Assembly: GCA_036785375.1 (NCBI GenBank)
Contig: JAWMAR010000148.1
Span: 248,001-312,000 of the forward strand
DNA from: Leucoraja ocellata
Taxonomy: Eukaryota
Length of the DNA stretch: 64,000 nucleotides
Direction of reading: 5' to 3'
The notes under the pieces were generated by a model that made no database searches, was not told where the DNA came from, and saw only the letters and a list, made by a program, of their open reading frames with translations. Shown in pieces: positions 1 through 61,500 of this stretch. Within the stretch, counting starts at the first letter, position 1, and the number at the start of each line of letters is the position of its first letter. Both the position numbers and the translations under genes were made by a program.

Positions 1-793
1 CAGTCAAGTTGGTCAGGCTGAGTCCTCCCACAACAAAACCATGTTGATTGTTAATAATCCTTGCATTTTGAAGTCGAGATTAATCTTGTCCCACAGAATT
101 TTTCCCAATAACAATCTTGACATTGGACACTCAGTCCTATAAATATATGGTTTATCACTGCTACCCATCTTGAATAAAGCTACCATGTTTGCTGTCATCC
201 AGTGCTTCCCCTTTGTTCAGCAAAGATTTAACAATCTTTGTCATCCCCTGCAATCTCCTCCCTTGCCTTCCATAACAGCCTTGAATACTTCTTATGAACC
301 CCTGAGGATTTATACCATCTCAACACCTCGTATCTGTTAATGTTAACATGTTCTAGAATTTCACTCAGCCCTTCTCTCCCTGGGCTCACCAACCAGATAA
401 GATGCAGCTAGAATACAAATCAACATCCTGAATTTGAATTATTATTATGTCTATTTGTAATAAGCATACATATGGCAACACTGGTTGGAATTGCGATGTT
501 CAGGTAATTCTGAATTAGCCAAGGCTTTACTGCTGTAAATGACTGAATAATTTAAAACACCAAATTTGTTTTGTAATTATCCCCTGCTCATTAAATTTTA
601 AAGCATTAATAATTCTATCTGAGCTCTGCTATAATTTGTGTTACATCTTATGTTTGCAGTACATGTCAATAATATTGAACGAACAGTATCTGTACCGCCT
701 CCAAGTCGCTATCTGGGTCTGGTGTCAATACTGAAACGTCATGGTAAGGTGAGTCCCATATTCCCCCCAAAAAAACTTGTTATCTGTTTTATT

Positions 794-3790: not shown

Positions 3791-4213
3791 TGAACACAAC
3801 CAACTTCAATTTTAAGCAAATACAAGACTTGCAGAAAATGAACAGGAAGAGTGATGAATGGGATGGTAATTTAAGAAGACGTACGTAAACAAAAGGTTTA
3901 GATTCGAGAAATTAAAATAATCTGGTGTCAAGGAAGAGGCTTATGAAGCTTTAAATGTGATAGGCTGATATATTCCATGTATAGATGTTATCCAAAGGCA
4001 GTAATTACTTCTTCCATGTCCTTTCATCCGCCAATACCATCTCCACACCCAGTGGCTCTCCCGCAATCATCCTTAAGACAAGGTTACAGGGTTACAGTGA
4101 TCAAGGACACAAGGAACTACAGATGTTGGTTTACAATGATAATTTGATGATTACTAATTGATTTCACTGTGGTGGGTTACATGTTAATTTTGACTTTTTA
4201 TTGTCATTTTCAG

Positions 4214-13500: not shown

Positions 13501-16500
13501 ATCTCTTCCCAGTCTTCTTCATATTGAGGCAAACATTCCCAGCCTTTCCAGGCTCTCCTGTTAGCTGAAACACTCCACCTCAGCCACATACTGGTTAAAA
13601 ATCGTTTTTCCCCCTCGCTAGTGTAATCGCAACCTTTCCATAGTTGTGCCAGCCAAAACTGCATAAAGTATTCCAGCTGGGGTCCAACTAATGTACTGTC
13701 AATCTGATAAAATTATTAATCCAGGACCCCAACTACTTCCTCGAGTGAACATGAGATCTTCTATAGTATCATTTTGAAGGTGAAATAAAAAATTTGCTCA
13801 GTCCCCATGTCAATATTCATGCTTCGGTAAATTCGTAAATCAGATTATGTGCATATTATGGTGGTGCTTATATACATCAAAACAAAATACTGAGCTGTGA
13901 CTTTGTGTTTTTGGACATCTTGATACTGACAAAGATGTGATCATAAATTCAGTCTGTCTTCATTGCATTTTAAAATATATAATAATAATAATAATAATAA
14001 TAAACAGACAAGTATAAGTATTCATTAAGAGTTACAACCCATGTAATTTATTTTTTTAATCTGAATATTTAATTTCTGTTCTTTAGATGGTGATCAACAA
14101 ATTCAAAGCACTCATTGGAAGTTGTCATACTTCACAACCAACTCATCTGACATATACCCACTGCACAAACGATTTGTACGGAGCACAATATCAAGGAAAG
14201 ACAAACAGGAGAAAAGTTTGCTGACCATCTACCAGAGAATGACAGAAGTAAAAGAAATACTACTGCAATGTGAATCTCTTGTAAAAGTGACCAATTATGT
14301 TCTGAGAGATGCTTTGGGGAAAACTTTGGAGTTCCACCCACTTCCAACCTGTGATCAGAGGCTGAATAATCAGATTACCAAAGTTGATCCACTCATTCTT
14401 GTTAGGGTTAAGATAAAACCACAGTTACTTTACCAAGTCTTACACTTCCTGAAAGAGCTAGACTTGCTGGTGGATGCTCATCTAGCAAAAGCGTTCTACA
14501 TTGTGAAAAAGCTAATGGTTATTAAGCAAGAAATGATATTGGGAAAGACAAGTAAAACCAATAATGAACATGGTATGTATTTGTTTATATTTTCTCCTTC
14601 CATGTAGATTTGTTGAGATTCTAAATTTAAAAAACATATGTTGAATTTTTTGATAAATGCGAATCCAAGGAAACACATTACATATTTATTGTGTGGAGAA
14701 TTTCCGATATGTAGGAAGCCACCTGTCAATGATGGTGGACCCTAATTATGAAATTCACCATTGCCATCACCACACACGTACACGGTTATCTGAGGAAAAG
14801 GATGTTTGAAGATCAGACCCTTTTACAAAACTCATAGCTTCCCAGGCAGCATTAATCCTGCTCTTCTTTATGTTTCTGAGTCTTTGATTACCTGCAACAG
14901 TCACATCAAAACACTAAAAGGACACCATCAACACTGTCTCTGCAAACTCCTCCAGATTCACCAGAAAGGTAAGTGAGTCAATGTTAGCACCCTCTCCCAT
15001 GTCAACATTCCCAGTGTTGATGCCCTAGTTACTCAGTTTGCTCCAGTTGAGCAGATCCTGTCATTTGCACGCCCAGCATCAGCCTCTTGCAACGGACACC
15101 CTTTTCCGAGTACTGTCACAGAGAGAGATTACCATCTTGATTGGGGAGAAAGATTCCACGGTGTTCTCAAAACCTGGAAAAGATAAAATTATCACATTGA
15201 CTTCAGGGAATCACTGGCCCATGCTCTTCTCCAAGTAGAGTAAATGCTTTGATTTGGAACTGAGAACCCAGAGTTAATTGTTCAGAACCACATCGAGCCC
15301 AATGTCAAAACCTGAAGAAATACATTACTTCAGAAATTCTCCTCCTGCTCAATACAAAGGCACCATATCTGTTTGAGTCTATAAGTTTCATACCGGCCTC
15401 AGCAATTTGGCCTTCGGAACCTGCAGAATTGGAGTAGCAGCAAGTCATCCTTGCCCTGAGAGATAAAGGATATATCATTATAAGGCTGAAAAACAAATAT
15501 GAAGCAAAATAGTATAATGACAGCTACACAATGTAATTCGATAAATTAATCCTTTAGAAAGCAGAAATATAATGAACTATCCTCTCTAGCTTTGCGGACA
15601 CTTAACCACCTGTAGATTGTGTAGGAAAGAATTGCAGATGCTGGTTTAAATCGAAGGTAGACACGGAATGCTGGAGTAACTCAGCGGGTCAAGCAGCATC
15701 TCTGGAGAGATGGAATGGGTGATGTTTCAGGTCGAGACCCTTCTTCAGACTGATGTCAGGTGAGTGGGCGGGACAGATAGAATATAGTCGGAGACAGTAG
15801 GACTGGTGGGAGAACTGGGAAGGGGGAGGGGATGGAGACAGAGAACGCAGGGGCTATTTGAAGAGTGCCCCTTGTCCTCTCCTTTCACCCCATCAGCCGT
15901 CGCATACAGCATATAATCCTCCAACACTTTCGCCACCTCCAACGGGATCCCACTATTGGCCACATCTTCGCACCTTCATTGTCAGAGGTCCAGCGCAAAT
16001 TGAAGGAACAGCAACTCGTATTTCGCTTGGGTCGCTTACACCCCAGCAGTATGAACATTGACCTCTAACTTGCTTTCCCTCTCTCTCCATCCTCTCCCCA
16101 TCCCATTTCTCCCACCAGTCTTACTGTCTCCGACTACATTCTATCCCTGTCCCGCCCACTGACCCGCTGAGTTACTCCAGCATTTTGTGTCTACCACCTG
16201 TAGATTGTCAAGTTTGTGGGGATAGTTCATTACATTTCCGCGTTCTAAAGGATTAATTTATCAAATTACATTGCATTTATGGTTTGTACAAAAACTGAAG
16301 TCTTAGACATACTGACAGATATTTGCTGACATTTTATTCACTTGTCTAATGGATAATGGATACTTCAGTGTGAAGATGTCACTATTCACAAGCATTTCAA
16401 TTCAGGAATATGCCTTAACAGCCTGTCTCAGAATGGACTGGCATGAAAACTTTCTCCATTTATTTCAATGCAGTGGATCTGCTCCAAAATGTCACAGTAA

Positions 16501-19500
16501 CTCTTAAGTTACTGTATAATTCTTTTGAATTCTTTGAATATATTTATAACTTTGAATTTATTTACTTTTTAAGTAAAATATTTGTTTTATTTTTTAAACA
16601 TACACAGCTGGGGATGGATAGCTTACCCAAAGGACATGTTTTTCCAGCAGTATGTAGCTGGGACCTATTTTGGCCCCACCACATAACAAGATATATATTG
16701 AAGAATTCCCGTGTAGCAGAAGGCCTCATCCATTACTTGAAAGATTTTGTGCCACAATTCCTACTTTTGTAAACCATGCAAAGATGATGTGGTTTGCTGC
16801 AGATGACAAATGTGTTGCTTTTGAGTACTTTTAATTATGAAATAGGAATATGATGCCAGAGGTGGCTTTTCCAATTATGCAATACTTTGAATTCCGCTGA
16901 GGATTGAGAATGACTGCTTCCACTCTTCTGTGTGTTCTGAGATAATGATGAGACTAATGATGGGAATCACAGACTCCAATACAGGATGACAGTGGTGCTT
17001 GATGCGAATGCAAGTAGTTTGGGATGTGGTTCACTGCTTATGCCATTTACACTGGGCTTCTGTGCATTTCCAAAGGAACATGAATATCTCTAGGCCTCCC
17101 TGATTCCCAGGAGCCAGTGGTGATATTACAGATTTTCAAAGAGGCTTTGAGAACTCCCTAATGTTTTCCTCTGTCCACCTGATTATATTTTGCTGTGACA
17201 ATACTCAGAATAGACAGTCAGGCATGTGAGAGACGTGCTCATTGGAGCCAACCTAGTGCAATTAGAAATAAATACAAGATGTTGAAGATGCTCAGCGGGC
17301 CCGGCAGCATATGTGGAGAGAAGAAGAGTTAATGTTTCAGGTGAATCACTTTTCTTCAAACTGGAATATGTGTTTTAAATTGCAGAAAAGAGGAGGGGCA
17401 GAGAGAATAAAAGGAATGTTTGTGAACGACTGGAGACCAAGGTTGACCAACATCTGCAACATCTATAAGAGGATAGTACAGGCTTACAAATCATAGCTAA
17501 TCTTTCTGTAAGAGGTATAAGTGGAAATAATAAATGGGGACAGAGAAGAGAGAGACAAAACAATGCTGAAATGTAGAACCTATCAGTTGCTGCAAAATCT
17601 TAAATAATAGAAATTCATGATACTCAGAAGATCACTTACCAACTACGGAGAGAAGAAAACAAACTTAATGTTAAAGCTTCAGGCTTTTCTATCAGAACTG
17701 GCAGTTCTAACACATAGAAAAGTGGCTGGTTACATTAAGTTGCATTCGATAGTGGGTCGCAATGTTTGAAACATGTTAGATGAAAGGTGAGGTGCTATTC
17801 CTCAAGCTTGTAATGTGCTTTGTTGGAACAAAATAGGGAGGCAAAAACACATGGGTCAAAATGGAAGAGGGATGAAAAATTAATGTTACAGCAACTGGAA
17901 GCACTCAACAATCATGTTGACGGAACAGAGGTGCTCTCATATCTGTATTTAGTTTCTCCGCATCATGAGGACAGGACTCAGTACACCAAATTGGCAGGAG
18001 AACAAATAATACTTTACCTGGAAAGGGTACCAGGATGATGGAATGGGAGGTGATGTAAGGAAAGGTGTTGTATCTGTTATTGTCGCGTGGAAATGGTTGG
18101 TTACAATAGAATCACCACACCACAGTGGTTGGCACTGTTGCCTCACAGTTTGATCCTGAGTTCAGGTGATGTCTGTAGAGTTTTCACTTTCTTCCCATGA
18201 TCATGCGATTTTATGCCAGGTTGTTGGGTGTTCCCCTACATCCCAAAAACATGCTGGTTGGTAAGCTGGAGATTTGTCTGTGGAGTTTGCACATTCTCCC
18301 TGGGACCACGTGTGTACCCACCAGGTGCTTCGGTTTCCATCCACATCACAAAGGTAGATTAATTGGCCACTGTAAATTTTGCTTAACGTGTCAGTGAATC
18401 TTAGAATCTGGAGGGGAGTTAATGTGAATATGAGGGAAATAAAGTGGGTGCTTGATGGTCAGTAAGGTCTCAATAGGCTGAACAACCCATTTCCATGCTT
18501 TATATGTCCTACTCATTACAATGTTCTGCACTCACAGCCCCAGTATTGTTTCTTTCTTTTTCTCTTTGTCTTCATTTATCGCCATCTATCTGTTGTGGAC
18601 CTTTATTGTAGGATGCAGCTTGATCGAGGAGCTTTGTTCTAAATATGTTTGGTGTTAGATCTATTCTCTCATAGGTTTCAGTGAATAGATCATCAACAAC
18701 TTGGAGCTTGTCCTCAGAACATGCGCATACACTAGTGCTGACTGCGCACAACAGCTCAACAGCTCAAATAAATTCAAGGAAAACAAGTCAAGTTTGCACA
18801 GCCAGTTTTCAATGCTGGTATCATTTTAGTGAATCTTCACTGTAAACTCTGCAACCCCAATATATCTCACTAGCCAAGATCAAGTACAGTATTCTTCGAT
18901 CAAAATTCTTAAGTTTTGTCACATTGTACCATTGTCTCGTTGTCCCAGTCAAGTAAAGGTGAATCCATCAAGGCAGTTCTACTGAGGCAATGTGTAATTC
19001 ATGTATATCAGGAATCACATCGGTATTGGGTCAGTCAAACACACAGAAAATGCCTCAGAGTAATTTAGTAGAAAATAGTTGGAAAAATCTTTTTGACCTC
19101 CGAAGGTAGTTTAATAAAACTCCATGAGGCATATGTGTTGAATTTCAACATCGACAAATCCACATACCTCTCAAACTGGAAAGTCCTTGATTCTTATGGG
19201 TTCACCTTTAAATAGCTAAAGTGTCTGACATCTTAAGTGAAGGGCTTAACTTAAGATCAGAGGAAAGGTCCAGAACTGAAAAGTCATCTATCTATTCCTA
19301 CACATGCTACCTAACCCGCTGAGTCCTCTAGCATTTATTTTTGGCTTAAGTGAATCTTGCATTCAAAGGACCAATTTTAAAATGTAAATAAATCTTAACC
19401 TTTTTATTTCAATGTTATTTCCTTACAATTAATACCAAATGATCTTTCAGTCAGAAAAAAAATCGATGCTCTTTATCATTTAAAAAATATCAAGTGGAAC

Positions 19501-22500
19501 TCCTCATTCTACCCTTTTCCGTTGAAAAAAATGATTTCCAGAGTCTGATAGCTTAAAACTTTGATCATTTCTTGACCTTCTCCAAGGCCTCAATTTCTGT
19601 CATGTCCATCAAAGTGAGTAAAATTGAGATACATTTCTAACGTCTGCTGTGAGGGTCTGAACAGCAAACTTCTACTGTCTTCATGGTTTATTCCTCATAT
19701 CATGGCTTATACACAGCGACATTCATTGCATGGTCATAGCACCTTCTGGTTTCATCATTGGCTAATCATACTGTCTGATAGAATGTCATAGCATCCCATT
19801 CACTAAATCCATTTGTGTATGTTATTTTTCTAGATGATTTGTCAGAATGTCCCATGCTTTTCCATGTTATGTCTATCCATTTGCTTTGTTTTTACAGTCT
19901 TAAAATGGCTGAAAAGGAACAGGACCCACAGAAAGTCCTTTAAAGGTAGAGTTCGGCCAAGACCCTTACTTGGTCCAGACTGTGTTATATGTTGTTAGTG
20001 CATGGCAACTCCAGTGTATAACGATCATTTCACTTGCTCAAACATCTTGGGTACAATCCAATTCTTCCCATTTGTTTCATGCTCCATTCTGTTGCACCGA
20101 CAGGACTTGGCACTGAGTAGGTCAATGAGTTTCGTGATACTATTTATCCCGAATAAATAGATTTTGTTGGACAAATCCGGAATAAATTATATACTAATCT
20201 CAAAGTATTACCATCCTTGACAGACAAATTGTTTTGAGTTGTGTTGGACATGATGTTTGATATATAGATAGGACACGAGATGAGACACATCATTAAATTC
20301 ATTCAGACTGCCACCAAGCCATAGCTTCCTTTTTTAATGAGAAAAAAGAGGACTTTTTTAAAAATACTAAAGTCATCAAAAGCACAATCAAGAAATTATA
20401 TTTAGTAGGTGTCCATTCATAGAGAATGACACACATAAATTTACTTTAAAAAGAGGAAATTCCACCCTATCATGAGATAAGCTTGGGTGTACTGATGATG
20501 TTTAAAAAGTGATCGAAAGTTAGTAACATAAAATCAATTGAGGTAGAAATACCTGTCATTTTAATGTGTGTTACATGTGCTGTTAAAAAAAAGATGTCAT
20601 GTGGAATCATTCTGTTAAAATCAAAAGAAAGATAGCCAACTGATTATTTAGTTTATGCAAAACACAAGGTGCTCGAGGAACTGAGTAGGCGAGGCAGCAT
20701 CTGAGGAGGGAATGGATTGGTGGTGTTTTAGATCAAGACCCTTCAGCCAAGACCTGAAACATCACGTCTATTCCTTCCCCAGATGCTGCCTGACCCTCAG
20801 AGTTCCTCCAGCATTTTGTGTTTAGCTCAAGATTCCATTAAGTAAGTAAGTAAGTAAGTCGACATTATCGACAGTTTCCTCAGTCTCCTAGTTATCCAAT
20901 CTATTATTTATTTATTTCAATTAATTATATATATTGCCCCAGCAGGAGAGATGAATCATATATTACTGTAATTTTAAACACACCCACTGATGGTGTGCTT
21001 TCAGCAACTTTCTCTCTACAGTGCTGCTGGTGCTGCCACCTAATGAACAGTCAGAGTACCTTTTCTGAAATAAATGACATCTGGTAGCTTGGCCGTTGAG
21101 ATTATATTTTGCTCCACTTTCAGCAGGCTTACATAAAAGCTGCCCTGAGCAAAACTGTTTCTCACTTAGTATTTACTTTATCCTCCTTGGTAAATAGATA
21201 ATTTGAAGTTTTAGAAACATAAAACGCGTATAAGACCATAAGAGGAATAGATAGGGTAAATGACAGCGTCTTTTCCCAGGGTGGGAGAATCAAGACCAGA
21301 GGACATAGGTTTAAAGTGAGGGGGAAAAGATTTAAAAGGAACTTAAAGGGCAACTTTTTTACACAAAAGGCAGTGGATATATGGAACGAGCTTCCAAAGG
21401 AGGTAGTTGAGGCAGGTGCTTTCATAACGCTTAGAAGATATTTGGACAGGTATATCGATAGGATAGGTATAGAAGGATATGGGTCAAATGCAGGCAGGTG
21501 GGACTACCATAGATGGGGCATCTTAGTTGGCATGGGCAAGATAGACTAAAGGGCCTGTTTCTGTGCTCCATTACTTAGACTGTGCATTCATGTCTTACTT
21601 TAAACATTTCAATATATAATTTAAACCGTTAATAAATTGGCAATATTAGCAATACCAGCCATACTGCTAAGAAATTTAAGTTATTTTAAACTCTGCCCTC
21701 GACATGTCCAATTCAGTGTTGGTCAGCATGGAGAAGTTGGGTTGAAGGACTTGTTTCCATGCCGTATGACTCCATGACTCTATGACTTGATTTAAAAAAA
21801 TAGAAATCATTTGTCCTCTATGTTTTCAAAATAAAAAATATTTGTCATGTTTCATGAGGTCATTATACCTGCTAAAATAAGTATAGTTATTGAAAGCCAG
21901 TGGATATATCAATGTGTAAACCCCACTGTTTGCAACAAAGCTGTAAAGGCTGACTGCTATTTCCAGCCCAATGGAACCCGAGTTAGATGGCAATTGGGAT
22001 TCCACTTATTAAGTGAAAATTGTATGTGCTCGTAATTTATGAATCCATTAATAGCCACTTTTAACTTCTTAATGTTTTCGATGATGATGAATGAATAGTT
22101 CTTTGTTTTGGTAGTGTCTTCAAACTATATTCAAAATAGATAGTTAGCCATTGCGTTATAAAAGATAATCAGTTCCAATTGAAAGGAGATTCCCTCGCCA
22201 GAACAAAACATAACTATGTAGTGATAAACTTATTTTGCATGTGACTTACTGTAAACATATCAATTTCACTGGAAAGTCTATTGATTTAGTGATGAATTAC
22301 CTGTGGCATCTACTTGTTTTTGCTCAGTCAGAATGTTGAATTCATGTCTCACTCCTGAGACCTGAGCAAATGATTAAGAGTGATGCTTCTACACATGACT
22401 AAGAAAGTACTACACAGCCGAAGATGCCACTTTTAAATAAGATATTTAACTGGGGCTCTATCTGTATATCCATTGACACCAAACTGTGTCATTCCATTTC

Positions 22501-43500: not shown

Positions 43501-46500
43501 GATGATCATTTGAAATGGCCCCGCAAAGATCATGGTCATATCAAGGGTGCAGAAAGAATATCGGGGAAGTGGGTGGATATCTAGAATCAGTGCATTAGTG
43601 TGTGTGTGCAGAGAGTGGGATAGAATAATAAGGTTGCAATCGGTTTGGAAGATTAAGGTTGAATTGTTATGATGTGAGGGGGATGTTGGTGCCATCGATA
43701 TTGCAGGGTTTGGCGATAGGGGGATCTGAAGGACACCTGGAACAAGGGTTAAGTTTCTAACACGGGGAATCTACCTGCAGCTGGTTTTCAGCACCGGATT
43801 CTTTGGGCTAAATCTTTTAAGTATTATTGAAGCAGGTCTTGTATTGTTCTGCTTTTGCATGAGTGGTTTTTACTGTCTGCAGGCTACACAGTGCAAATTA
43901 ATTGCTTGAGTTGGGGTGCAGATCTAGTTTGGAAATTTCATGTGCTCAGACACACAGAAGAGTCTGAAGCCAAAGTTATTTTGAAATGAATGTAAGAAGC
44001 TGTTGCTTTTCCAGTTCAGAATTCTATTTGGTATTCCACATACATTGTGTTGCACAGTAGAATTGTTGGATGTCATATTTTAATTTATTCTTCCAAAGTC
44101 TCCAAGACTACATATAACAAGACTAATTCTGTAGACTTTGCAATGCGTTGAGGGGAAATCCAGAATGAGTTCCAACAGCCCAGTTTTGGCCACATGTTTC
44201 ACTTGCAAGTGTTGTGTGGAGTTACCATGGATCATACTAAATGGAACAAGATAAAGAGCAGTTGTCTGTCCATCCGTTCAGTAATGTAGATTATAAATAT
44301 TACGATTAGCTGCAATTATTAATCATATTTCCACACTAATTTTCCCTGTCACCCACGTCCCCATCAAATGCTCCTTCTTCCCATCACATCTCCCCATCTA
44401 TCACCCCCTCCCCACCTCCATCACCCCGCCCAACATGCTTGGGCTACTAAAAAGGACACAAAGTACTGGTGTATCTGAGCAGGTCAGGCAGCATCTCAGG
44501 AGGACATGGAGTACTTACATTTTGGGTTGGGACCCTTCTTCAGACTTATCCATGTCAGCGAGAGATGCTGCCTGACCCACTGAGTTACTCTAGCATTTGT
44601 TTTTTTATTGTAAGCCACCATCTATTGTTCCTTGTGTTCCCAGACTTGGTATACTAGCCGTACTGTGGGTTGGAAAGGAAATGACATTCATTTAAACACA
44701 TTGTCAACTTTCTGAGATATTTAAAGTGCTTCAGAAACATGTCGAACAAACTGACTAATCTAATTAACCATTGGACTGTTGAGAATTTGGATCTCGCTCA
44801 AACCTGAGTAGCATATGCTTGAGTTCCAAGTATAAAATTCCGTTAATAATTTTACTGTTGTCACTCGTTTTAAGAGGGAATTTGGCTTTATTGGATGCCG
44901 TGTTATCACTAAAGTGGAATGTTAATTTGCAGGGCTGTCACAACATTTTGGATATCCAATCCTAACAACCACCTCATCAACAATGCAGCAGCTGGTGCCC
45001 AGGTAAGGCAATACTTGGTTGACTTGGAAAACCAGTTTATACAGACAGCAGCCTGGGATTTCAATTTCCCTCCTGGATAAATATAAAGTCCTATCGTATC
45101 GTAGATGTTCTTTTTCAGAGTAATTCTTGTAACATCTCCCCACCACCCCTACCAGCAACATGTCCCTAACATTACTGATACTATTTAGTCAGGAAATCAT
45201 GACCTGGGAATCATGTTTTTTTAATCTGACAGGCTGCTGTCTCTATATATTTGTTTTGTAAATCTGCCCAGTTGTTATACAGGCTCCATTTATACATGAA
45301 GTGAATTAGATTTGTTGTCCTTTATTTTGGCTTGATATTTTAGTTAAAGTCGTGGAGTAAACAGGATCACAGAGAGTGGCCTATTCACATGAACATCGTA
45401 ATGTTCATATGATCATAATGTTCTCAACATGGGCATGGACACTTGTTAAAGCACCAGAATAGTAATCCAGAGACTAGTGATATCTATCAGAAGGGAAAAC
45501 CCACCAGTAAGAATATTAAAATTTCTTAATAAATTTGAATCTGAAAAAAGAAACAGCAACTATTCTTCATATTGATGTTCTTGAAAAGTACTGGATTGTT
45601 ATAAAAAAACCCCCATCTGGTTCACCAATGTCCTTGAGGGGAAAGCTATCATTCAGATGTGATTTGCAGGTGACTCCAGGCACACCCCATATGGTTAACT
45701 CTTAATTGCCAATGAAGTGGCCGAGTAAATCACTTGGTTCCATTACAGTCAAACTTTAAATTTATGTTCTTATACACATAATGATACAGAAGGAGAACCG
45801 TCGCTTCCTTGCCAAGCCCCCGGGAGCAATTAGTTCCTTTCTTCCCTCTCATTTCACAGTAGTCCTTCAAATTATTCTCTCTCAAACATTCTTATCAACC
45901 TTTCCGTCGCTTCTAATTGCCAGTAAGTTACAGTAGCTAATTAACCTTCCAGCATTTCATTAAACCTGGGAGGAAACTGGGTCAGTCAGTTGAAACTGGT
46001 GGTCATGGGGAGAGTGTGCAATCTCCACGCAAACAGCATCCGAGGCCAGAATGGAACCAAGGTTCCCAAAGCTGTGAGATAACAGCACTGACTGCTGTGA
46101 AATAGTGTCTCTGGCAGAAAATTGGATGAGACAGCCTGGCATTGACTTGAGTGTCGCAATGTTTAAGAAACATGCAGACAGGTTCATGGATAAGACAGGT
46201 GGGCCAATTGCAGGCAGGTGGGACTACTGTAGATGGGAAATGTTGGCAGGTGTGGGTAAGTTGGGCAAAAGGGCCTGTCTCCATGCTGTAAGACACTATG
46301 ACTCTATTAAATCTGGATACAGCAAATGGCTCCCAAAAACATCAGACAAAGACCTCCTCACAAAGATTTGCAGAGTGCTATGCCACTGACCATTCATTCA
46401 AAAGCCCCACATAATCATACTTGCAGATTCATTCCTGACAATGTACTAGATCTCCAACACAATCCATGAGTAGAACAGGCTCACCAAAGACAAGACTTGA

Positions 46501-49500
46501 TGCCACACCTCATAAATACACATGGCATCAGGACAGCCATGGACAAGGAAACCTCTTCCTGATTAGAACTTAGTGGTTAGTTTTGGTGTGAAGACAGGGC
46601 TTTGCACAATGATTGTGCGTTAATCATTTCTACTAATAGTAGCATTGGCAGATCCATCTACTGCTGGTAAATGGTGAGGCGTGGTCCAGGACGTATACGC
46701 AGTTATTTCAGTTTTGCCCTTCAGAACATGGCCTGGTCATTATAGTGATGCTACCTAATCACTTGGCTATGGATAATGAAATCCGTGCACCCCAGAATAC
46801 ATTTGGTGCTCTTGCTATTTTCAACGTTTCTCCCACCTCCGTCTAGCACACTTATAACACCAGCGTCTACCCAATAATATGAAAACTGCCTTGCTGTGCT
46901 CTGTTTACAAAATGTAGGACAATCCCAACTGGCCAATCTATCTGTTCTCAATCTGCAAAGTGATGGGAGCTGTCATGGACAATAGTATTATGCAACACTT
47001 AATTGCTGATGCCAAGTTTGGATCTTGCCAAGGCAGCTTGACTTCAGGCCTAACCAAATATTGACCATCTATATTTGATCTTTTAGCCAAGCAAAACATA
47101 ATCTCGTCATCCAGCCAGTTGAGCCCTGTTAGACACTTGCCTGCTTCATGGGACTTATTCTTCCAAACTTGAGTCCATCCAATCCCTTCTAATTTAACAG
47201 CTCAGTTTGGTGAACCTTTGTGTTATTTTTTTTCTATGTCAAGTATACATTTTCCTGGGTAAGGTGACCAAATGTGTACTGCTCCAAACATGGTGTTTTT
47301 ATTTAATTGATTGCAAAATACAGCATGGAAACACGCCCTTTGGTCTACTGAGTCCACTCTGACCATCAATCACCCGTTCACCCTGATCTCAGCAAGAATC
47401 CGTATTCATGCCGTTTTTATGAATTTTGGATGAGGTTGTCCAGTTGAGAGCTCTTCTATTCTTCAAATTCATCAACGTGGTTACATGGTAGGGCTTCCAT
47501 TTAATGCCTTGCCCAAAAGGCAGCTTCCCCTCATTTCTGTAATTCGGTATCAACCTGAAATGTTGCTGCTCAAAACACTCAGTCTTTGTTTCCAAGATGC
47601 AAGAACTTTATCGCTGAGCTATGACTGATTTATAATGGGGATTAACTTATCCCAAACAATCGTTTTGTCACTGGCTTACCAATTTGTGAAAATTTCCAGT
47701 CACTTCATTCTTACCATGTAAATAGTGTGTTGATGTCAAATACCACCATCACCAGGAGTGAATTAATGATATAGTTATCACAGATCTAACTGGTCTGAAA
47801 CCTGCAAAATATAACAGTACCCAAAAAGATTCCAAGCAGTAGTTTACAAACTTTAACACATTAATTATTTTATTCAACTTGGGGTCATGAAACAGGGCAA
47901 GTTTTGATATGGGATTTGTAGTCTCAGTCTGAAGAAGTGATCGACCCAAAAGGTCGCACATTCCTTCTCTCCAGAGATGCTGCCTGTCCCGCTGAGTTAC
48001 TCCAGCTTTTTGTGTCTATCTTCGGTTTAAACCAGCATCTGCAGTTCCTTTCTACACAAATGTATAGGTGTTGTTCTGCTGGGCCTTTTGAATACATCTA
48101 CACAAGTGTAACTTGTTGGAGATGAAACTTTGATCTCAAATGGTCATTTTTACCTCTCCATAGATACTGCCTGACTTGCTGAGCATATCTGGTATTTTTT
48201 TTAAATGTAAGAATTACAATGGTTTAGCTCACCACAACATTCTCAAGAGAAATTATGGAACAGCAATAAATGGAATTGCAAATAATACCTTGATTCCATA
48301 GAAATACATTTTTATGAATGTTTCTATTCAGTGTGTGGCAAGTAGGCAGCTCCTTTGTATGAAAGATTACTGCTGCAAAATACTTTGCATGTGGCCGGGA
48401 ACAGTCCTTGCATGTTTAATAGATGCAAGGGCATTTTATTCTGCATCTATTTCAGATGCTCAGCATTTGCTGATTTTTCCATTTTAATTTCTGCATACAT
48501 TTGGTCCAACCTACAAAAAGCAATAATTAACCTCAAAACCTATTTTAAGCTGGTTCTCCTCTGGGATGTGTGAATTAATTTAAATGTATAGGTTACACAA
48601 AAATGCTGGAGAAACTCAGCGGGTGCAGTAGCATCTATGGAGTGAAGGAAATAGGCAATGTTTCTGCCCAAAACGTTGCCTATTACCTTGGCTCCATAGA
48701 TGCTGCTGCACCTGCTGAGTTTCTCCAACATTTTTGTGTACCTTCGATTTTCCAGCATCTGCAGTTCCTTCTTAAATAAATGTATAGGTTAGTTTAGTAT
48801 TTGAATATTTCTACTGAAGCACAATTATGCTTAGAGAGAGTGTTTTGTTTAAAAATATATATGTTGTTTTTCCTGGTTTTAACGTTCCTTGTTTATTCTC
48901 TTCCTTTCCAGGATGTGGGGATATGGTATATTTTCCACCGTAACCCTACCGGAGAATCTGTGGGTCAATTTCCAGATGGCCAGTCAGAGTTTACCCCTTT
49001 GGGAATATTTTACAACAACAGGGTACATTCTAACTTCAAGGTGTGTATACTCTGCTGCAAAAAGAGCATGTAACAATGATTTATTTTGCATGTATTTTTT
49101 GTTTCAAAATAAGATTTCCAATTTATTGTTGTGAACTATTTAAAATATAGCCTGTAGGCACACTTGTGTATTCTACGCCTAGGTTTAGATTTCAACCCAA
49201 ATTTTTTAGATTAGTTTGGAGATACAACATGGAAACAGGCCCTTCAGTCCACCGAGTACACTCCAGCTATCGATCACCTGTACACTACGTCATTCCACGT
49301 TTGCATCTTACACACTAGGGGGAATTTACAGAAGCCAATCAACCTACAAACCTGCATGCCTTTGGAAAGTGGGAGGAAATCAGAGCACCTGGAGAAACCC
49401 CATGCAATCACCGGGAAAACATACTAACTGGATATCTTGCTGAGAGATGAGTCAAGAACATTAATGTCAAGGGTAATGTCAGATCTCAAAAGTTCCGTGC

Positions 49501-52500
49501 AGTGGACGCTCCCTACATTATTGTCCATGATGTGTTGCCTCCATTCCTCATTTACAGTGGGTATACTCTTGGGTGAAGAAGAGTCTCGACCTGAAACCTG
49601 AAACGTCACCCATTCCTTCTCTCCAGAGATGGTGCCTGTCCTGCTGAGTTACTCCAGCATTTTATGTCTACCTTCGATTAAACCAGTATCTGTAGTTCTT
49701 TCCTACTCTTGGGTGTTTAGACCATTGATTGTCTTATTAACAGTGTGTGTTATCAGTGTTGGATAGCCTATGCTCTTCCTCCTGTTTTTTGGGTCAAGTG
49801 TTTTGTGTTCTGAGCCGCCTTATATTTAAAGAGCTGCTTTTTTTAATCACAGTGGTGTTTCTAATCCCAAAACACCATACAGTGAAGGTTGGTTAAGTCT
49901 TTCAATAGGTGCTAATTGAAGCTCATGTTGTTTGTAGGGTCATCCGATTGTATGTAAGGTGCTGTCTGAATAGAGTCATCTTTTGTGCGGTACTTGGAAA
50001 CTCCAAAGTCATTTGTTTCTTGTGGTTTTATTGCTTTGTGCCTGGTGGTTTTAGGTAATGCTCAGTCCAACTGACATCGCCTTTGTGGTTTCCAGTTTGA
50101 AGAGTGCTGTAGTCAAACTGCTGCCTATGACAAGATCAAGCGCATTGTTTTAAAGCCTTGTGATTGTCTCTGACAAAATAGGTTGTTGATTTTGACAAGT
50201 CTGCGCTTCAAGCAATTTGTCAGGAGGATTCTGTTGGATTGATCTTTCCCTACTCCCTCCTTGTAAATTCTGTCTTGCTACCAGATTGTCTCTCCAGCAC
50301 TGAGGTTATCCAGGAAGATTGCTTTGTCTCGTATTGTCTCACAGCCAGGGCGTTTTCAAGATTTCTTGAGCAGAAGTCCTCTTTGGGTTTGCCCGTAGTT
50401 CCCAGTGTGGGGGGACATCCGTGCTGATGACCCTAGAGTATTAGATCCATGATTGAGCTAGTGGGAGAGGCACATGGTATTCACATACTCTACAGGGAGA
50501 ATCTTTGAGATACCTATCTGACTCATTTTCCACTAGCATTGATAGCATTCCATTAGCTTCCCTAATTACTTGCTTTCTAGCCCATTGAGAATCATGCATA
50601 AACACGCGCTCTCGGCATTTCAGAACTCAACTGTCTCTCACTATTCAGATAAAATTCTCCTCCTTTATTTTTCTTGCCCAAATGGTCAGTTTCCCATTTT
50701 CCCACATAATCCACTTGGCAGAACACCAAATCCATCTCTAACCTTTCTATGCCTGCTTCACCACATCTCTGTGCCATCATCAAATTGAGCTGTTTTAGCT
50801 TTTGGTATCTTGATCCAAGTCATTTACTGTGAATGCATAGTAAGCACGAATTATGGCACTAACACCAATTGCGTTGGCACCTTGCTCATTGCATCTTGCC
50901 AATCAGAAAGAGCCTAGTGTGCCTAGTGCTTTCTGCTAGACAGTCAACTCACTTTTGCTGTACATTATCATTTTGAAATGCCCAATCCTCCAGAAAAGAG
51001 TGAGTTTCTGTAGTTGCTAATTCTACTCAGTGTTACAAATGTGTGTTTTATTATAGTGCCAGGCTGGAATGTTGGGATTATTATCTCCAGTGATTTATTG
51101 ATTTCTGGCATCCTTTCCCCTAGGCTGGACTTTTCATTGACAGTGGAGTGAAGACAACCAAATGCAATGACAATGATCCCAGGGAAATCCTTGCACTGGA
51201 CTTTGCAAGGTATAGCAGAATTAAATATTTCAGATTGATTTACTTCTGTGTAAAGGTCTTTACATATTTTTACATGTTTCTCTATTTAGGATTGTCTTTG
51301 TGTGCAGTTTCGGTGAAATTATCTTTGCTGGTTCAATTTATGCTCTTATTCAAACTATTTATTTTTATTAGAAGGTTTTGTTAGATCATATTTTCTTAAG
51401 GCATGGAAGTATGCCATTCGGTCTATCCCAGCTCTCAGAGAAATCCCTTAAATACTATAGTCCACTTAGTTGCCTGTTAACCGTTCTCCCTCACATGACA
51501 ATTAACACTCCACAGGCTCTACTTTTGGCCAAGAGTAAAGGTGTGCTCTATGACATAATTGGCTTCATGACGAATGATGGACAAATGTTGGTTGTCTGTT
51601 CAATAATGCACAGAAACGCTGGGGCTAGTTTAGTGAACTAGTAATGCTTGCTAGCATGATATCACCCTGGGAAATTTGATATAAACTCTATGCAAATTAG
51701 CCCAACTTATAAGCATTAATTTTTCCAATGCTTGAAGCATTTTTAAATTGAACGAAGATTCCATGTAAGCATTATTTAGGGAGAAATTATGCAAGTTGTG
51801 CTCACTGGTGAGTTTTGATGCTTATTTGTGGCCTCTTCCTTGTGGGAACTAAATAGCTGATTACTTCCCCTGCAAGATTTGGCTATTTGTTAGGAAATGA
51901 TTTCATTCAGCCAATATTTTTTTGTGCTTGTTTTGATAACATACAGCTTCCTTACTCTATCCAAGCATGGTCAAATGCTGGAGATTGGTGTTTGTTTTTG
52001 GCATTGGGTATTATTGTTTGATACCACCAGTTACTAGTAAGAGGGAGGTGAGAGTGTGGAATTAAGGGAGGAGGTCAGCGTTGGGGATCTCTCAGTGGGC
52101 TGATGCCTAAAAAAGTAGGAAGGGGAAAGGAGAACTTAATAGCTGGGACGTTGTCAACTGGGAGTCAGTAATGAAGATTGGACCAAGAGGCCATTAGTCT
52201 GAAGAAGGGTTTCGGCCCGAAACGTAGCCTATTTCCTTCGCTCCTAGATGCTGCTGCACCCGCTGAGTTTCTCCAGCATTGTTGTGTACCCAGGCCATTG
52301 GATATATTGAGATGCATGGGGCAGAATTAACTGTTGGGTATTTTGAAGATTGGGATTGGAAAGAGTGTAGAGACAGAGTGATATAGAGTTGTTTCTCACC
52401 ACTGGCATTGACAACATAGTAATCAAGCTGGGTTAGGTCAGTTGTCAAGGGAATGAGTCAAGCGAGGTTCTTGACTGATGACCCAATAGAGAGCTTGATA

Positions 52501-55500
52501 ACATTATCACTTTGTGTCATGGAGACTTGCAGCACAAAAACAGGCCCATCGACCTAACTCGTTCTTGCCAATCAGGATGCCCCATCTAAGCAAGTCCAAT
52601 TTGGTTTATAGCCCTCTAAATCCTTCCTATCCATGTACCTATCCAAATGTCTTTTAAATGTTGTTATTGTACCTAGCTCAAGTACTTTCTCTGGTAGCTT
52701 GTTCCATGTACTTGCCACCCTGTTTGAAAAGGTCAGTCCTCGGGGCTGAAACCAAGTAAACAAAAATTATTCTGCTTTAAAATTCTCTGTTACTTCAGAA
52801 TATCTTGCAACAATACAAGTAAAACTGCATTGTTCTAGCGATAAGTGCCAACATACAGATAGATATATCTTCTGCTGTGAAGCTTAAATAATAAATAATC
52901 AATATTGTGGGTTCACATGTAATCAATAATATGTATAAAATATAGGATAATTCTCTTACAATTCTGGCATATTTTGCCAGCAACAGCCATTGGATCTTCT
53001 AATAACATGCTCCATGTGCAGCAAGAAGAGTCTTCTTTACCATTCAACTTGTTTTTATTATTTATAATCGCCAATTTTCTTGATGTTTACACTTTGCTGC
53101 AAGCATATTTGGCATAATATGCAATGATTGCTTAATTTTTTTTTTGGCTGAAATCATGTAACAAGAAAAGATTTGTCCTTTAATGATTTATTTATATGGC
53201 TCTAAATATCTTATGCTCAACTGATAATGAAGGATTAATAATTCATTAGTGTTTAAAACTGTTGTATTTAGCCTTCTGTTCCCGCTGAATCTTGGTTTCT
53301 AATGTCTATTAATTCCTTGGGCCTGAGTGTCTGCCTTCTGTTTTCAATGCTTTATTTCTCAAGAACCGTGACAGATCTGTAACTCCTGCTCTGTATCTTT
53401 GACATAGGTTTCGCCCTCATCAAAATGCTGACCCCAGGCAGCCACGTGTTCCTGCTGTTATTGATGGTCTTATAGCTTTTAAAAACAATGAGCAAGGAGC
53501 TTGGGCTAGAGGGGGAGACATTATATTCCGCAACTCCGGGTAAGTTCTGTTATATGCTGGAACATGTCTTTGCAACAGAAAATATCTTTGATTATACATA
53601 GAATCATTGAATGAATTACTAGAGATGGTCTATCTCAGTCACTGAGCTAGAGGTTCCACTGCTTGCATGGTACTGAAGATATAATGCAGAGGTAGTTACT
53701 ACGGCTATACAAAACAATTCGCTGATCACATATGTTTCACAAAGGAGTTGATATTATGTTGCTTGTTGTATAATGTAAGATGCATGAAATTCTGGAATGT
53801 GACCCCATTCTCTTTGCTTCTGCAGGTTCTCTGATAATGGGATAGGTCTGACTCTAGCAAGGTAACTTTGATTTTCTAATTATTCGGTGACGAGCTTACC
53901 CAATCAAATCATTTTGAGTTAAAAACCAATATGTGCAGGAACAATGCTTATCAATTTCCAATCCCAACAGATTCAAAAATCATGCTACTGATAAAAGTCA
54001 TAGAGCTGGAATGTTAATGTTTCTGTTGCCACACATGTTGCCCAGCATTTCCAGTATTTTCAAGTTTCAGGTAGTCTTTGTTTGCAGTTGGTTTAGTGAC
54101 AAGATTCCCGAGGATAGTTCAATCCATTATAAATTCTTTCCTGCATATTTTTTCATCCCTTTTTAAAATGAAAAATTCTCGCAAGTATATGGCCTTGTTC
54201 AGGATGATACAAAGTGTTATAGTTATTCCGATGAAAAAGTTATTCTAAATGTGATTAATAATTTCCAATACAATGTTGACAAGTGTACAGTGTAAGATGT
54301 TTAATATTCTAAATGAATTCTGTTTTATACAATTGTAAAACTGTATGCAAATCTGGCAAGAATTTTTTTTTTTTTTTTTTTTTACATTTGTTGTAAAGGA
54401 AAATTAGGTAGAAAAATAATTATCCTAATTCCAACAATGTTTAAGAAGGAATTGCAGATGCTGGAAAACTGATGGTAGACAAAAATGCTGGAGAAACTCA
54501 GTGGGTGAGGCAGCATCTATGGAGCGAAGGAATTAGGCGACATTTTGGGTCGAGACCCTTCTTCAGACTGATCAGTCTGAAGAAGGGCCTCGACCCGAAA
54601 TGTCGCCTATTTCCTTCGCTCCACAGATGTTGCCTCACCTGCTTTCTCCAGCATTTTTGTCTACCTAATCCCAACAATAATCAGTTATGCCATGAAGTGC
54701 AATAAAATATAGAACAATTGAAAACATAACTAAATCTCTCAACGTGTAACTGGGTTTGACTTTGTCAATTTGGTTTAGCCTGCTTATTGGCCAAGGTCAA
54801 CACCATATACGTTCCCATAATGTTGTTGCCACCGCTCAGATCCTGCAATTGCTCTGCTTTTGTGCTCTGGTAGTTCCTCCAATTGCTTTTCTGCAACACA
54901 TGTAACCTTCAAAGCATCCCTTGCTTAGAGAGACACAGTATCTATAAGTATAAACAAATAACTCATGAGAGAATGTATTTAAGTGTGTTAGGAGAGTATA
55001 GTTGACCAAAACGCTGGGACAATTTACATGGTGACATCCAACTCTGCTTTAGTCTCATCTAATACATCATTGACAGTGCAGCAACCTCAACCTTGTGATG
55101 TTCATGGAATCAGAGTGGGCTGTTTATGTCCTCATGTTAAACCTATCAATTCACATGTTTATCCTTGATTTTCTACCTCTGTGTTGCTATTCTGCGCTAG
55201 CCCCACATCCCATGGTTTATTTTAATATCTAAAGAGCTATTGATCTCTTCCTTGAACATACTTAGTGACTGGGAGACACAAGTTTGGAAGTTTGAGTTTA
55301 AAAAAAACAGTGCTGGATGAACTCAATGGGTCAGGCAGCATTGGAGGGAAGTGGACAGATAACATTTCAGGTAGGGACCATTCATGATGGAATGGGGGAG
55401 AAAATGGCATTGAAGAGGGTGTGATGGAGTGTAGTAAGAGACAGAAACATGTTTGCTTTTGATTTGCTTTTTGTACGCATTAAATTAAATGTGGCTTGCA

Positions 55501-58500: not shown

Positions 58501-61500
58501 TGACCTCCAGAATGGCTTTTCTGTGTGGGGGGAATGACCGAGGACAAGTTTCCTTTTATGTATCTCTCCTAATTTATTTCCTTGCATTTTCCCCATCAGG
58601 CTAATCTTGAGGTATTTTTTGGCACGCCAGGGCAGTGGTTTGGCACCAACAGCCTTGATGGTGACCAGACTTCTATCTTCCATGATTTGGATGGTTCAGT
58701 GACTGGATTTCCTGATACATTTGTGGTCAGGGCTGATAACTACTTGGTCCGTCATCCAGGCTGCCTGAGTGTGCCAAGGTGGAATGGTGTAATCTGCACT
58801 GGCAAGTATGCACAGGTGAATTTTAGTTCCGCTAATAAAATAACTCGCAATTGTAGAATTTAACATATTTTGCCATTCAGAAGTTTTGTTTTACAGCCGG
58901 AATCCGTAATGAATATTCTCCTTTCTTTTCCACAGCTCTATGTTCAAGCATGGCATCCAGAGAACCCATCTCTCCTGATTGCAAAGGATATGTACCCAAA
59001 CCACCCACTGAAGCTGCAGGGTGTAAATCGTAGGGCACCCTATCAGCAGTACCAGCCTGTGGTCATGCTGGAACAAGCCTACACATTATCATGGAATGGC
59101 AGTACGCCTGAGCAGATTGTCCTCTACCCGATCAATTTTAACAGGTAATGTAAAACCATAGTGCTGGGAATGCTCAGCAGGTCAGGCAGTATCTGGAGAG
59201 AGAAATTTAATTAACTATTCAGGTTGAGTCCTATGCTGCTTTTCTTCTTTGTGTTCTGTTCACCCTGTGCTCAACACTCTATAATTTGGTTATGATTTAT
59301 TCACAAACCAAATAAAAAATGCTTTCTGGGCTCTTTGTGGAAAATTGAAACTTGCTCTAATAAAGAAACCATTGGACATGTATAGTGAGTCTCTGCCCTC
59401 TCACCCGTCTTCATCAATCCTGTGGTTGTCGCTGACTGGACCTCCCTCCCTTACGGAATCAAGGGATGTGGGGGGAAAAAGCAGGAACAGGGTACTGATT
59501 CTCGATGATGAGCCATGATCATATTGAATGGCAGTGCTGGCTCGAAGGGCCGTATGGCCTACTCTTGCTCCTATTTTCCATGTTTCTAAACAAGTTGTTT
59601 ATTCTAATAACGTAAAAGAAAATCCTTAGAATTCTCCTCGGGAGTAATTTGATCGACAAAATGTACTAGCATCAGTGTTTTTCCATTGTGGTTTTCAAAT
59701 TTCCAGCTATTGAAGCTTTTTTTTCATGGAATCACAATATTTACAAGAAGGGGAACATTCAACTGTTGAGTCATCGCTGGCTGTGTAAGAATAATCCAGC
59801 TAATCCCATCCCACTGCCCGCTTTCTAATCCTTTCCTTTCAGATACTTATCCAGCTCTCTTTGGCACACCACAATTGAATCTGCTGTCACCAATACCACA
59901 TTGGTGTTTTGCAAACCCTAATTATTTAGTAGTTTGGAAAAGAAAAATAAATTTCCTGGTGTCACTTTTATCTATTTTTTGTCAATTCCTTCATTTTATG
60001 TTCCCGAGTGCTTAACCACTCACCCATTGAGGGAGGTTCACACCAATGATAGACTGTCTGTCCCACTGAGTTACTCCAGCATTTTTTGACTTTCTTCAGT
60101 TTGTACCAGCATCTGCAGTTCCTTCTTTCACAGGTTCACACCAACCTCCATTGAAAGATCAGCTTCTCCAGACTATTCACGTAAACATAAAAACATAGAA
60201 AATAAGGGGGTGTATTGAGAAAATGACCTTCAAAATAGAGTCAGAGAGCAAGGAAGACAAGATGAACCTTTTACAAACAAAATTGTCACAGCCTCTTATA
60301 TTCCATAGCCTTCAAATTATCAAGCCTACTTTGTGGCACTTTAACTTGGCAATTTGGATTTCTGGCTTATGAGAGAGAAGAATTTTTGGAGGGAAAACGA
60401 CAAATGAGGGCTTGTGTTGCCTTAGTAAAGGAACATCATAAGTCTGGAGAAGTTGTATATTGTACTATCGCTATCCAATGAGGTGTCGTTACTGCTTGTT
60501 ATTAGGAAGAAAAAACGCAATTGTTTAACTTGCTCTTGAAACAAATTCAGAGGCACTCTTAGTTTTTTGACAAGTTGCAATACATCCATTTTACTTAACT
60601 AATTCCTTGTTCTTGTCGATATGCACATCAAATGTTAGCCTCCCCCTCGACTCCGTTCAAGGACCCAAGCAGTCGTTCCAGGTGCGACAGAGGTTTACCT
60701 GCATCTCTTCCAACCTCATCTATTGCGTCCGCTGCTCTAGATGCCAGCAGATCTATATCGGTGAGACCAAGCGGAGGTTGGGCGATCGTTTCGCCGAACA
60801 CCTCCGCTCGGTCCGCAATAACCAAGCTGACCTCCCGGTGGCTCAGCACTTCAACTCCCCCTCCCACTCTGCCTCCGACCTCTCTGTCCTGGGTCTCCTC
60901 CATGGCCACAGCGAGCAGCACCGGAAATTGGAGGAACAGCACCTCATATTCCGTTTGGGGACTCTACACCCCCGGGGCATGAACATCGAATTCTCCCAAT
61001 TCTGTTAGTCCTTGCTGTCTCCTCCCCTTCCTCAGCTCCCCTGCTGTCTCCTCCCACCCTCCAGACTTCTGGCTACTCCTCCTTTTCCCTTTCTTGTCCC
61101 CACCCACCCCCACCCCCGATCAGTCTGAAGAAGGGTTTCGGCCCGAAACGTTGCCTATTTCCTTCGCTCCATAGATGCTGCTGCACCCGCTGAGTTTCTC
61201 CAGCTTTTCTGTGTAACCTTCGATTCTCCAGCATCTGCAGTTCCCTCTTAAACACAAATGTTAGGCTCAGTTGGGTTCAAGATCGGGTGCTGCACGATGA
61301 TGCTGTATGCCATCTACAAGTCATAGCTTTCACCTCGAAATCAGAATGCTGTGAATGTTAATCTGGCTGAAGAGATTTTGTTGAATGTCATTAGTTTAGT
61401 TCAGGGATACAGCGTGGAAACAGGCCCTTCGGCCCACTGGGTCTGCGCTGACTAAAGATCGCCTGTGTACTAGTTCTATCCTATACATTAGGGACAATTT

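Follow-up and report, generated by a model that had tools for sequence, protein, structure and literature searches.

Short inserts and their target sites

The window analysed here is a 64,000-nucleotide stretch of the skate Leucoraja ocellata (GenBank assembly GCA_036785375.1, contig JAWMAR010000148.1, positions 248,001 to 312,000 of the forward strand; 40% GC), which holds repeated insertions of pieces of a Penelope-like element (PLE), a retrotransposon with a reverse transcriptase (RT) and a GIY-YIG endonuclease (EN). The short pieces are copies of its pseudo-long terminal repeat (pLTR), which probably arose as by-products of the reverse transcription of autonomous PLEs. A preliminary description had interpreted at least seven of them as a family of non-coding, hammerhead-bearing, retrozyme-like elements from one Penelope-derived source, each with its own direct flank of 8-16 bp. 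The seven insertions and their shared source were confirmed by a common 3' repeat with the PLE piece at 60643-61254, and a direct flank was found at all seven. The copies are listed below, with target-site duplications (TSDs) where recognised; relative positions count from C3 of the hammerhead motif CUGAAGA, at 61125, as position 0.

60643..61254, + strand: 5'-truncated PLE, putatively Neptune-type, subfamily A, used as reference copy; end of the GIY-YIG open reading frame (ORF; stop at ~61008), pyrimidine-rich 3' untranslated region (UTR), pLTR with hammerhead, and tail; TSD 60629-60642/61255-61268
15621..16192, no strand assigned: rearranged subfamily-B PLE; a tailed, inverted arm of pLTR and UTR on the - strand is joined, on the + strand, to ORF fragments 15862-16068, 3' UTR and a tail-less pLTR piece with the hammerhead deleted; TSD 15605-15620/16193-16208
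36023..36158, - strand: solo pLTR (-5..+129) with tail and an intact core, at 93% identity to the 61-kb copy; TSD 36014-36022/36159-36167
48596..48776, no strand assigned: head-to-head inverted pLTR, joint at ~+17 inside the palindromic stem II region, one arm tailed; TSD 48581-48595/48777-48791
49576..49703, + strand: solo pLTR, subfamily B (88% identical to the 15.6-kb arm), from ~+3, with tail; TSD 49564-49575/49704-49715
52196..52291, + strand: solo pLTR without tail, -3..+93, intact core; 8-bp TSD 52188-52195/52292-52299
54439..54663, no strand assigned: head-to-head inverted pLTR, both arms to -7, centre GATC 54571/54572, one arm tailed; TSD 54424-54438/54664-54678
60047..60131, + strand: short pLTR piece from ~+46, without hammerhead, with tail; TSD 60034-60046/60132-60144
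47925..48058, + strand: solo pLTR, subfamily B-like, -5..+130; no TSD found
35601..35811, no strand assigned: older head-to-head inverted pLTR, one arm tailed; no TSD found
20657..20827, no strand assigned: older head-to-head inverted pLTR; neither a tail nor a TSD recognised
44455..44607, no strand assigned: older asymmetric inversion, arms from -7 and ~+44; no TSD found
17268..17363, - strand: old pLTR remnant with a pyrimidine tract upstream, possibly a longer copy
32207..32289, - strand: old pLTR remnant
42850..42904, - strand: old pLTR remnant, alignment from +31..+33, the sole copy near the cut site, its boundary without a TSD anchor
55299..55383, - strand: old pLTR remnant

BLAST with three local references thus gave 16 loci of at least 40 bp (fragments of 23-31 bp at 4111, 48154 and 59173 were left out of the count), and the same TSD search found duplications at eight of them and no recognisable TSD at the other eight. 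The direct repeats bounding the seven inserts measure, in order of position, 16, 9 exact (14 with one mismatch), 15, 12, 8, 15 (one mismatch) and 13 bp, and the coding piece at 60643-61254 forms an eighth TSD-bounded insert (14 bp, one mismatch). When the search was run on 300 random position pairs, a score of at least 12 was reached by one pair and of at least 8 by 17, so that seven of the eight TSDs beat all but one random pair. Six of the seven insert TSDs therefore lie beyond chance with scores of 12-16, while the 8-bp repeat at 52188-52195 is on its own within it. A 6-bp 'TSD' at 35602 was rejected as internal to an inversion. A similar AAATGT...AGG stretch opens three target sites (48057-48072, 48777-48791 and 61255-61268), which may point to a target preference.

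Two of the descriptive terms applied to the inserts had to be narrowed. ORF sequence is present in two of the 16 loci, one of them being 15621-16192, which contains two PLE ORF fragments and so cannot be called non-coding. The label 'hammerhead-bearing' holds for four of the seven inserts (with an intact core in two) and fails for those at 48596, 49576 and 60047, which have no CUGANGA.

An empty site was found for the 60.6-kb copy, to which this evidence is confined, none of it concerning the seven short inserts. Public sequencing runs were aligned on 60420-61380 with an 80% cut-off; X1 and X3 are contigs, and X23 and X21 are RNA reads of a related species. Contig 9 of X3 passes from 60628 straight to 61255 (record positions 523/524), meaning that the flanking repeat is single there. 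Contig 1 of X1 stops at 60628 with 51 letters left, and its depth of 45.5 equals 25.1 + 20.4 up to 61305; by this arithmetic it would be an empty site too. The insertion 60629-61254 is hence absent from the two closest DNA runs (seen in X3, deduced for X1), so that it is young, polymorphic or restricted to a species and could serve as a marker.

The source element and its hammerhead motif

Identity of the two ORF fragments in 15621-16192 to a shark PLE protein is 59% and 50%; in a whale-shark PLE protein, 15862-16065 aligns with two separate stretches (E 1e-14 and 3e-9). The ORF end of 60643-61254 matches GIY-YIG at a Pfam E of 0.00065, below the curated cut-off. Among 161 candidates, 26 were homologs, the best being 74% identical to a skate protein and several carrying RT/PF26215; the nearest relatives come from Leucoraja erinacea and Rhinoraja longicauda, followed by sharks and rays. 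A search of a shark PLE protein against PDB sequences gave no match. This Penelope origin and the TSDs agree with the earlier proposal of mobilisation by a PLE RT/GIY-YIG protein.

The clade assignment draws on the linker that joins RT to EN and not on an RT tree. The close shark relatives P0003 and P0005 have a CX4CX2C linker there, a part that truncation has removed from the window copy, and four of the five relatives listed (P0003, P0005, P0014 and P0023) have a CX2-5CxxC linker, the fifth (P0004) being a chimera without that part. By eye, K-C-x-x-C is visible in the public-contig consensus directly upstream of the truncation at 60643. As far as the available portions of the literature go, this linker is a mark of Neptune and Nematis that Penelope/Poseidon lack, and Neptune and Poseidon are the PLE clades reported in vertebrates (Li et al., 2026, 10.64898/2026.07.22.740005, in part). 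The inserts and the coding copy are thus best described as predicted pieces of EN+ Neptune-type PLEs. The Neptune clade, in the sections of Craig et al. (2021, PMC8557442) consulted, resembles the window copies in having a C-terminal GIY-YIG, strong 5' truncation, an inverted 5' copy, a tail of 30-40 bp on one of the ends, a pLTR with a hammerhead and the CX4CX2C linker seen in the shark relatives. It differs in its microsatellite targeting, of which there was no sign here (AT content 63% in the TSDs vs 60% in the window).

A read-through PLE protein of the zebra shark ends in a peptide resembling the translated hammerhead region of the window, which indicates that the motif is part of the pLTR of the autonomous element. 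The motif in the reference copy is laid out as follows:

61125..61152, + strand: minimal type I hammerhead core with CUGAAGA, an extra A, a 4-bp stem II and GAAACGUH; predicted cut after 61152 (+27/+28)

Scanning for CUGANGA-N-stem II-GAAA-palindrome-UH gave intact cores at 52199-52226 (+), 36126-36153 (-) and 61125-61152 (+), and none in 100 shuffles; two of the seven inserts and the coding copy are thus intact. The preliminary description had placed cores at 52199-52226 (+), 36125-36157 (-) and 54577-54604 (+), and the last of these is mutated, as it said. Helix I has two contiguous pairs in all three intact copies, below the 4-5 bp of a minimal type I hammerhead, although a 2-bp helix I is reported for Drosophila virilis in the part of Cervera and de la Pena (2014, PMC4209133) available. 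The best predicted fold of the monomer buries G8-A9 (-10.6 vs -4.5 kcal/mol for the hammerhead stems), and the folding z-scores of seven core or pLTR stretches were unremarkable in six cases, with one at -2.15. Rfam returned no hammerhead family at E<=5; its six matches were all hairpin-type on the 48.6-kb fold-back and below the gathering score. Motif scans of metagenome, viral and prokaryote genome contigs returned no match.

The motif shares an extra base between A9 and G10.1 and a palindromic 15.2-16.2 with the minimal PLE hammerheads of PMC4209133, and differs from them in its 4-bp helix II. The relevant parts of that paper, which do not mention skates, report that lone motifs number thousands per genome, ascribe them to truncated PLEs and describe pairs on opposite strands at a spacing of 100-700 bp. 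The ribozyme of the anole PLE required protein for activity, and its hammerhead mutants inserted unaffected, with no RNA-seq reads ending at the cut (Frangieh et al., 2024, PMC11167929).

Ends and inversions of the copies

The 5' ends were compared at 15 loci of the window, 17268-17363 being left out because its pyrimidine tract continues upstream. Five copies start or fold back at -7..-3, six at -2..+17, one near +31 and one near +46, and two are long. The public runs give firmer evidence on the boundary. At least 125,790 contigs of X1 and 112,486 of X3 aligned (contig depth is no measure of copy number), and among the 24 best-supported loose ends listed, with 2662 further, the top positions were 61120-61123, with at least 343 contigs in X1 and at least 274 and 361 in X3. 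Flank agreement there is 0.33-0.35 in the contigs, with heterogeneous A-rich flanks; at 60642, where longer copies continue, it is 0.66-0.86. Depth rises stepwise at bin 61113 in all four runs. In X23, RNA depth is ~10,000 at the pLTR, 4,600 in the bin of the tail, 1,600 at GIY-YIG and 60 in the pyrimidine tract, which, like divergent bodies, aligns poorly at 80%. With the public data the sharp 5' boundary at -7..-2 is firm:

61118..61124, + strand: 5'-end hot spot (-7..-2), overlapping the 5' strand of helix I, the GATC palindrome and an acceptor-like site of pyrimidine tract and CAG

The claim that endpoints cluster at the ribozyme motif was accordingly borne out insofar as they are non-random and near the core, also in public contigs, but they lie at the foot of helix I, ~30 nt upstream of the predicted cut. 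None of the 16 window copies has its start at +28 +/-2, nor does that position appear in the list of the 24 best-supported public loose ends. The hammerhead cut does not set the insert ends, the ribozyme is carried along, and the idea that ribozyme processing defines the mobile unit was dropped.

As to the cause of the boundary, an RNA 5' end or start site has about an even chance of being the explanation, and the hot spot overlaps TCAGTCT, which resembles an initiator (Inr) sequence. A strong stop of the RT, or processing at the junction of pyrimidine tract and CAG, is only somewhat less probable, and little weight is left for any other cause. A fully spliced template as the usual source was rejected, as bases -5 to -7, part of the intron if the site were an acceptor, are kept in the copies at 36158, 47925 and 54571. 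The single-cell reads of X21 are strongly biased to the - strand over 60651-61244 (~8,000-9,000 vs 1,100-2,000 at the core); this bias does not tell sense from antisense transcription, as library chemistry decides.

These ends also bear on whether the copies are non-LTR retrozymes, in which hammerhead self-cleavage would free monomers that are circularised and then reverse-transcribed. A type I hammerhead core is present, and a 2026 preprint derives animal retrozymes from pLTRs, some of them in one cartilaginous fish (10.64898/2026.07.22.740005, seen in part). Head-to-tail joints of the 136-nt unit (61254 to 61119) do occur, in at least six contigs of X1 and at least nine of X3; their summed depths of 164 and 182, or ~27 and 20 per contig, are those of single-copy sequence. 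The ends are neither at the cut site nor circularly permuted, most of the seven inserts have no intact core, and the monomer fold sequesters G8-A9. No tandem unit is present in the window and none of 35 Tandem Repeats Finder (TRF) rows involves the unit; retrozymes being defined as tandem units, the copies fall outside them. The head-to-tail joint was found in none of 20,520 and 35,751 aligned RNA reads, and no pile of molecule ends was seen, in two poly-A/single-cell RNA runs of a related species; this is weak evidence, as such libraries lose circles. The metazoan retrozymes described in the available parts of Cervera and de la Pena (2020, PMC7229834) and Li et al. (2026) share the type I hammerhead, the relation to pLTRs and TSDs of >4 bp, but are tandem 150-450 bp repeats with canonical hammerheads and circular RNAs, whereas the skate copies are solo or inverted, shorter and have minimal PLE-type cores. 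A retrozyme origin is therefore very improbable, and the term 'retrozyme-like' does not fit. Several X1 and X3 contigs also have joints going back ~32-34 nt within the hammerhead region 61131-61165, which may be short duplications (as in 49576) or misread inversions of a quasi-palindrome.

The 3' ends of the arms in the window are bimodal, falling at +87..94 and +124..134, ~37 nt apart, and RNA depth halves across 61212. The two classes are separated by this segment:

61216..61254, + strand: optional ~37-nt 3' tail (+91..+129)

It corresponds to the optional 30-40 bp tail known in PLEs (PMC8557442 and PMC3846280, both seen in part). In the anole PLE the tail lies between two internal RT start sites (Frangieh et al., 2024).

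Head-to-head inversions make up six of the 16 loci, with a tail on one arm in four, on neither in two and on both in none. Their joints fall on palindromes, either GATC at -7..-4 (54571/54572) or the stem II region near +17 (48667), and in all three TSD-bounded inverted inserts the tail-less arm enters the TSD via 3-5 nt that are the element's own next bases. Template switching at palindromes, the other half of the proposal that RNA processing or template switching defines the unit, is thus a fair reading of the fold-backs. By comparison with published elements the inverted copies are a known PLE form. The Penelope families of Adineta vaga, as far as the sections of Arkhipova et al. (2013, PMC3846280) available describe them, likewise have solo pLTRs, head-to-head junctions on palindromes, an optional tail (31 bp) carried by one inverted pLTR, and TSDs, there of 8-10 bp. 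Solo pLTRs are few in A. vaga and often without TSD, whereas they are dominant and TSD-flanked in the skate window, with 16 loci in 64 kb. As a separate observation, the inverted pLTR 48624-48710 folds into a long hairpin with matches to miRNA models, the best at E 3e-6 and well short of the gathering score; such inverted pLTRs could yield small RNAs.

Solo pLTRs might also be left, like solo LTRs, when a full-length element recombines after insertion between its two direct pLTRs. The products would be flanked by TSDs and have a fixed 5' end, and such an origin has been proposed for some rotifer solo pLTRs (PMC3846280, in part), but it leaves unexplained the inverted copies, the starts at +3, +17 and +46, and the tailed and tail-less classes with their microhomology. 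It also needs full-length copies with an upstream pLTR from -7..-2, none of which was seen, and I regard it as improbable.

Origin of the short copies and their genomic setting

Sequence comparison shows a split between the two long copies. Five arms from the preliminary description and 36023 are closer to copy A at 61 kb (85-94% vs 76-83%), while 49576 (88% vs 78%) and 47925 (85%) are closer to copy B, the 15.6-kb arm. In a tree, the short arms likewise group with A or B. The inserts are hence not borne out as 'a family', as they divide by subfamily between two long copies.

The reading I favour is that the short inserts are solo pLTRs of Neptune-type PLEs, made as by-products of target-primed reverse transcription by autonomous elements and mostly dead on arrival; this is probable. 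Judging from the anole PLE, GIY-YIG would nick both strands 8-16 nt apart, and the RT would start internally at one of the two sites bounding the tail, +91 or +129. If it started in the upstream pLTR of the transcript, only 95-135 nt would be left to copy before the end or a stop at -7..-2, yielding a solo unit. Extension of both strands, or fold-back of the cDNA at the GATC or stem II palindrome, would give a head-to-head copy with one tail, and the rare head-to-tail joints would fit template jumping from the template end. The anole element, Poseidon PAc, shares a tail bounded by two sites of RT start, ~110-120 nt past stem II; both strands are extended in vitro, and no RNA ends lie at its hammerhead cut (PMC11167929). 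Its RNA needs ~55 nt beyond the start sites, so that solo units, which do not have them, should be dead ends.

Several points weigh against this reading. The anole data are from a Poseidon element in vitro, of a different clade, and the main text of that study has no fixed 5' boundary or excess of solo pLTRs. Within the window alone, clustering of the 5' ends is weak to moderate (P 0.01-0.2 for three of eight TSD-bounded copies, 0.0003-0.04 for five of 15). The ~6-fold excess of pLTR over body is inflated, as the 80% cut-off under-counts divergent bodies, and the X21 loose ends at 61119-61120 come in part from long copies with a divergent tract, given their pyrimidine consensus. Neither a start site nor a splice junction nor a stop of the RT was seen, and no full-length element, which would place the start of the upstream pLTR, was found. 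In D. virilis Penelope the start site lies ~120 nt upstream of helix I and ahead of an intron whose end falls at helix I's 5' end (PMC4209133 in the part available), which favours a splice site over a start site as the boundary. The subfamily tree has no strongly supported fork (ultrafast bootstrap at most 85, for group A), and its 18 short rows are compatible with short-only lineages.

Such lineages would be expected of a non-autonomous family resembling short interspersed nuclear elements (SINEs), in which solo pLTRs would be transcribed from ~-3 and the Neptune protein would recognise them in trans and insert them anew, the 96/136-nt unit being a lineage of its own. The sharp 5' boundary and the large pLTR excess over the body would suit it, as would the Inr-like motif at the boundary. 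In a rotifer, pLTRs in cis sufficed for trans-mobilisation (PMC3846280), and Chlamydomonas has non-autonomous PLE derivatives (PMC8557442; both sources seen in part). However, the short copies track the two long subfamilies, their structures are heterogeneous (solo, tail-less, inverted, ORF-bearing), 93% of the aligned X23 reads continue into unlike sequence, as expected of read-through, and the anole PLE needs RNA beyond the tail. A SINE-like family is thus unlikely. In its boldest form, the 96/136-nt unit from the hammerhead foot would be a self-propagating parasite of Neptune PLEs with at least tens of thousands of copies and its own start site, the rare head-to-tail dimers would be retrozymes at birth, and the head-to-head form would reflect double-strand priming in vivo by a dimeric PLE enzyme, a proposal that I consider doubtful.

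PLE stubs with tails, inversions and lone hammerheads have already been described, and the copies are in this respect mostly ordinary; a literature search that left most subscription journals outside its coverage found no paper on skate solo pLTRs. Their use is that so abundant a short form, anchored by TSDs, sharply bounded at its 5' end and with two fixed 3' ends, records in the genome how PLEs are reverse-transcribed, a process with unproven later steps. A map of the boundary would separate a start site, a splice junction and a strong stop as the place where PLE cDNA ends, and would distinguish priming on two strands from fold-back as the source of the head-to-head copies. For a skate Neptune-type PLE, the ends argue that hammerhead cleavage does not define the inserted unit.

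Other features of the window concern a host gene and further repeats. Exons of a CEMIP/TMEM2-type gene encode G8 and ILEI domains (TMEM2 ectodomain E 7e-59), and the pLTR copies of the 32-36 kb region are located between them or close by:

31106-31690 and 35111-35300, + strand: CEMIP/TMEM2-type hyaluronidase exons

The 3' ends of two long interspersed nuclear elements (LINEs), at 37832-38425 and 55553-56143, are 97.5% identical with open frames of 166-176 aa, and more copies lie at 34003, 40254 and 59455; I take them to be CR1/L2-like. A GC-rich block at 8347-9567 contains three direct or inverted copies of a 118-bp unit with nested inversions, and a degenerate G-rich tandem array at 29332-29902 adjoins a GC-rich stretch at 29100-29350, possibly the promoter region of the host gene.

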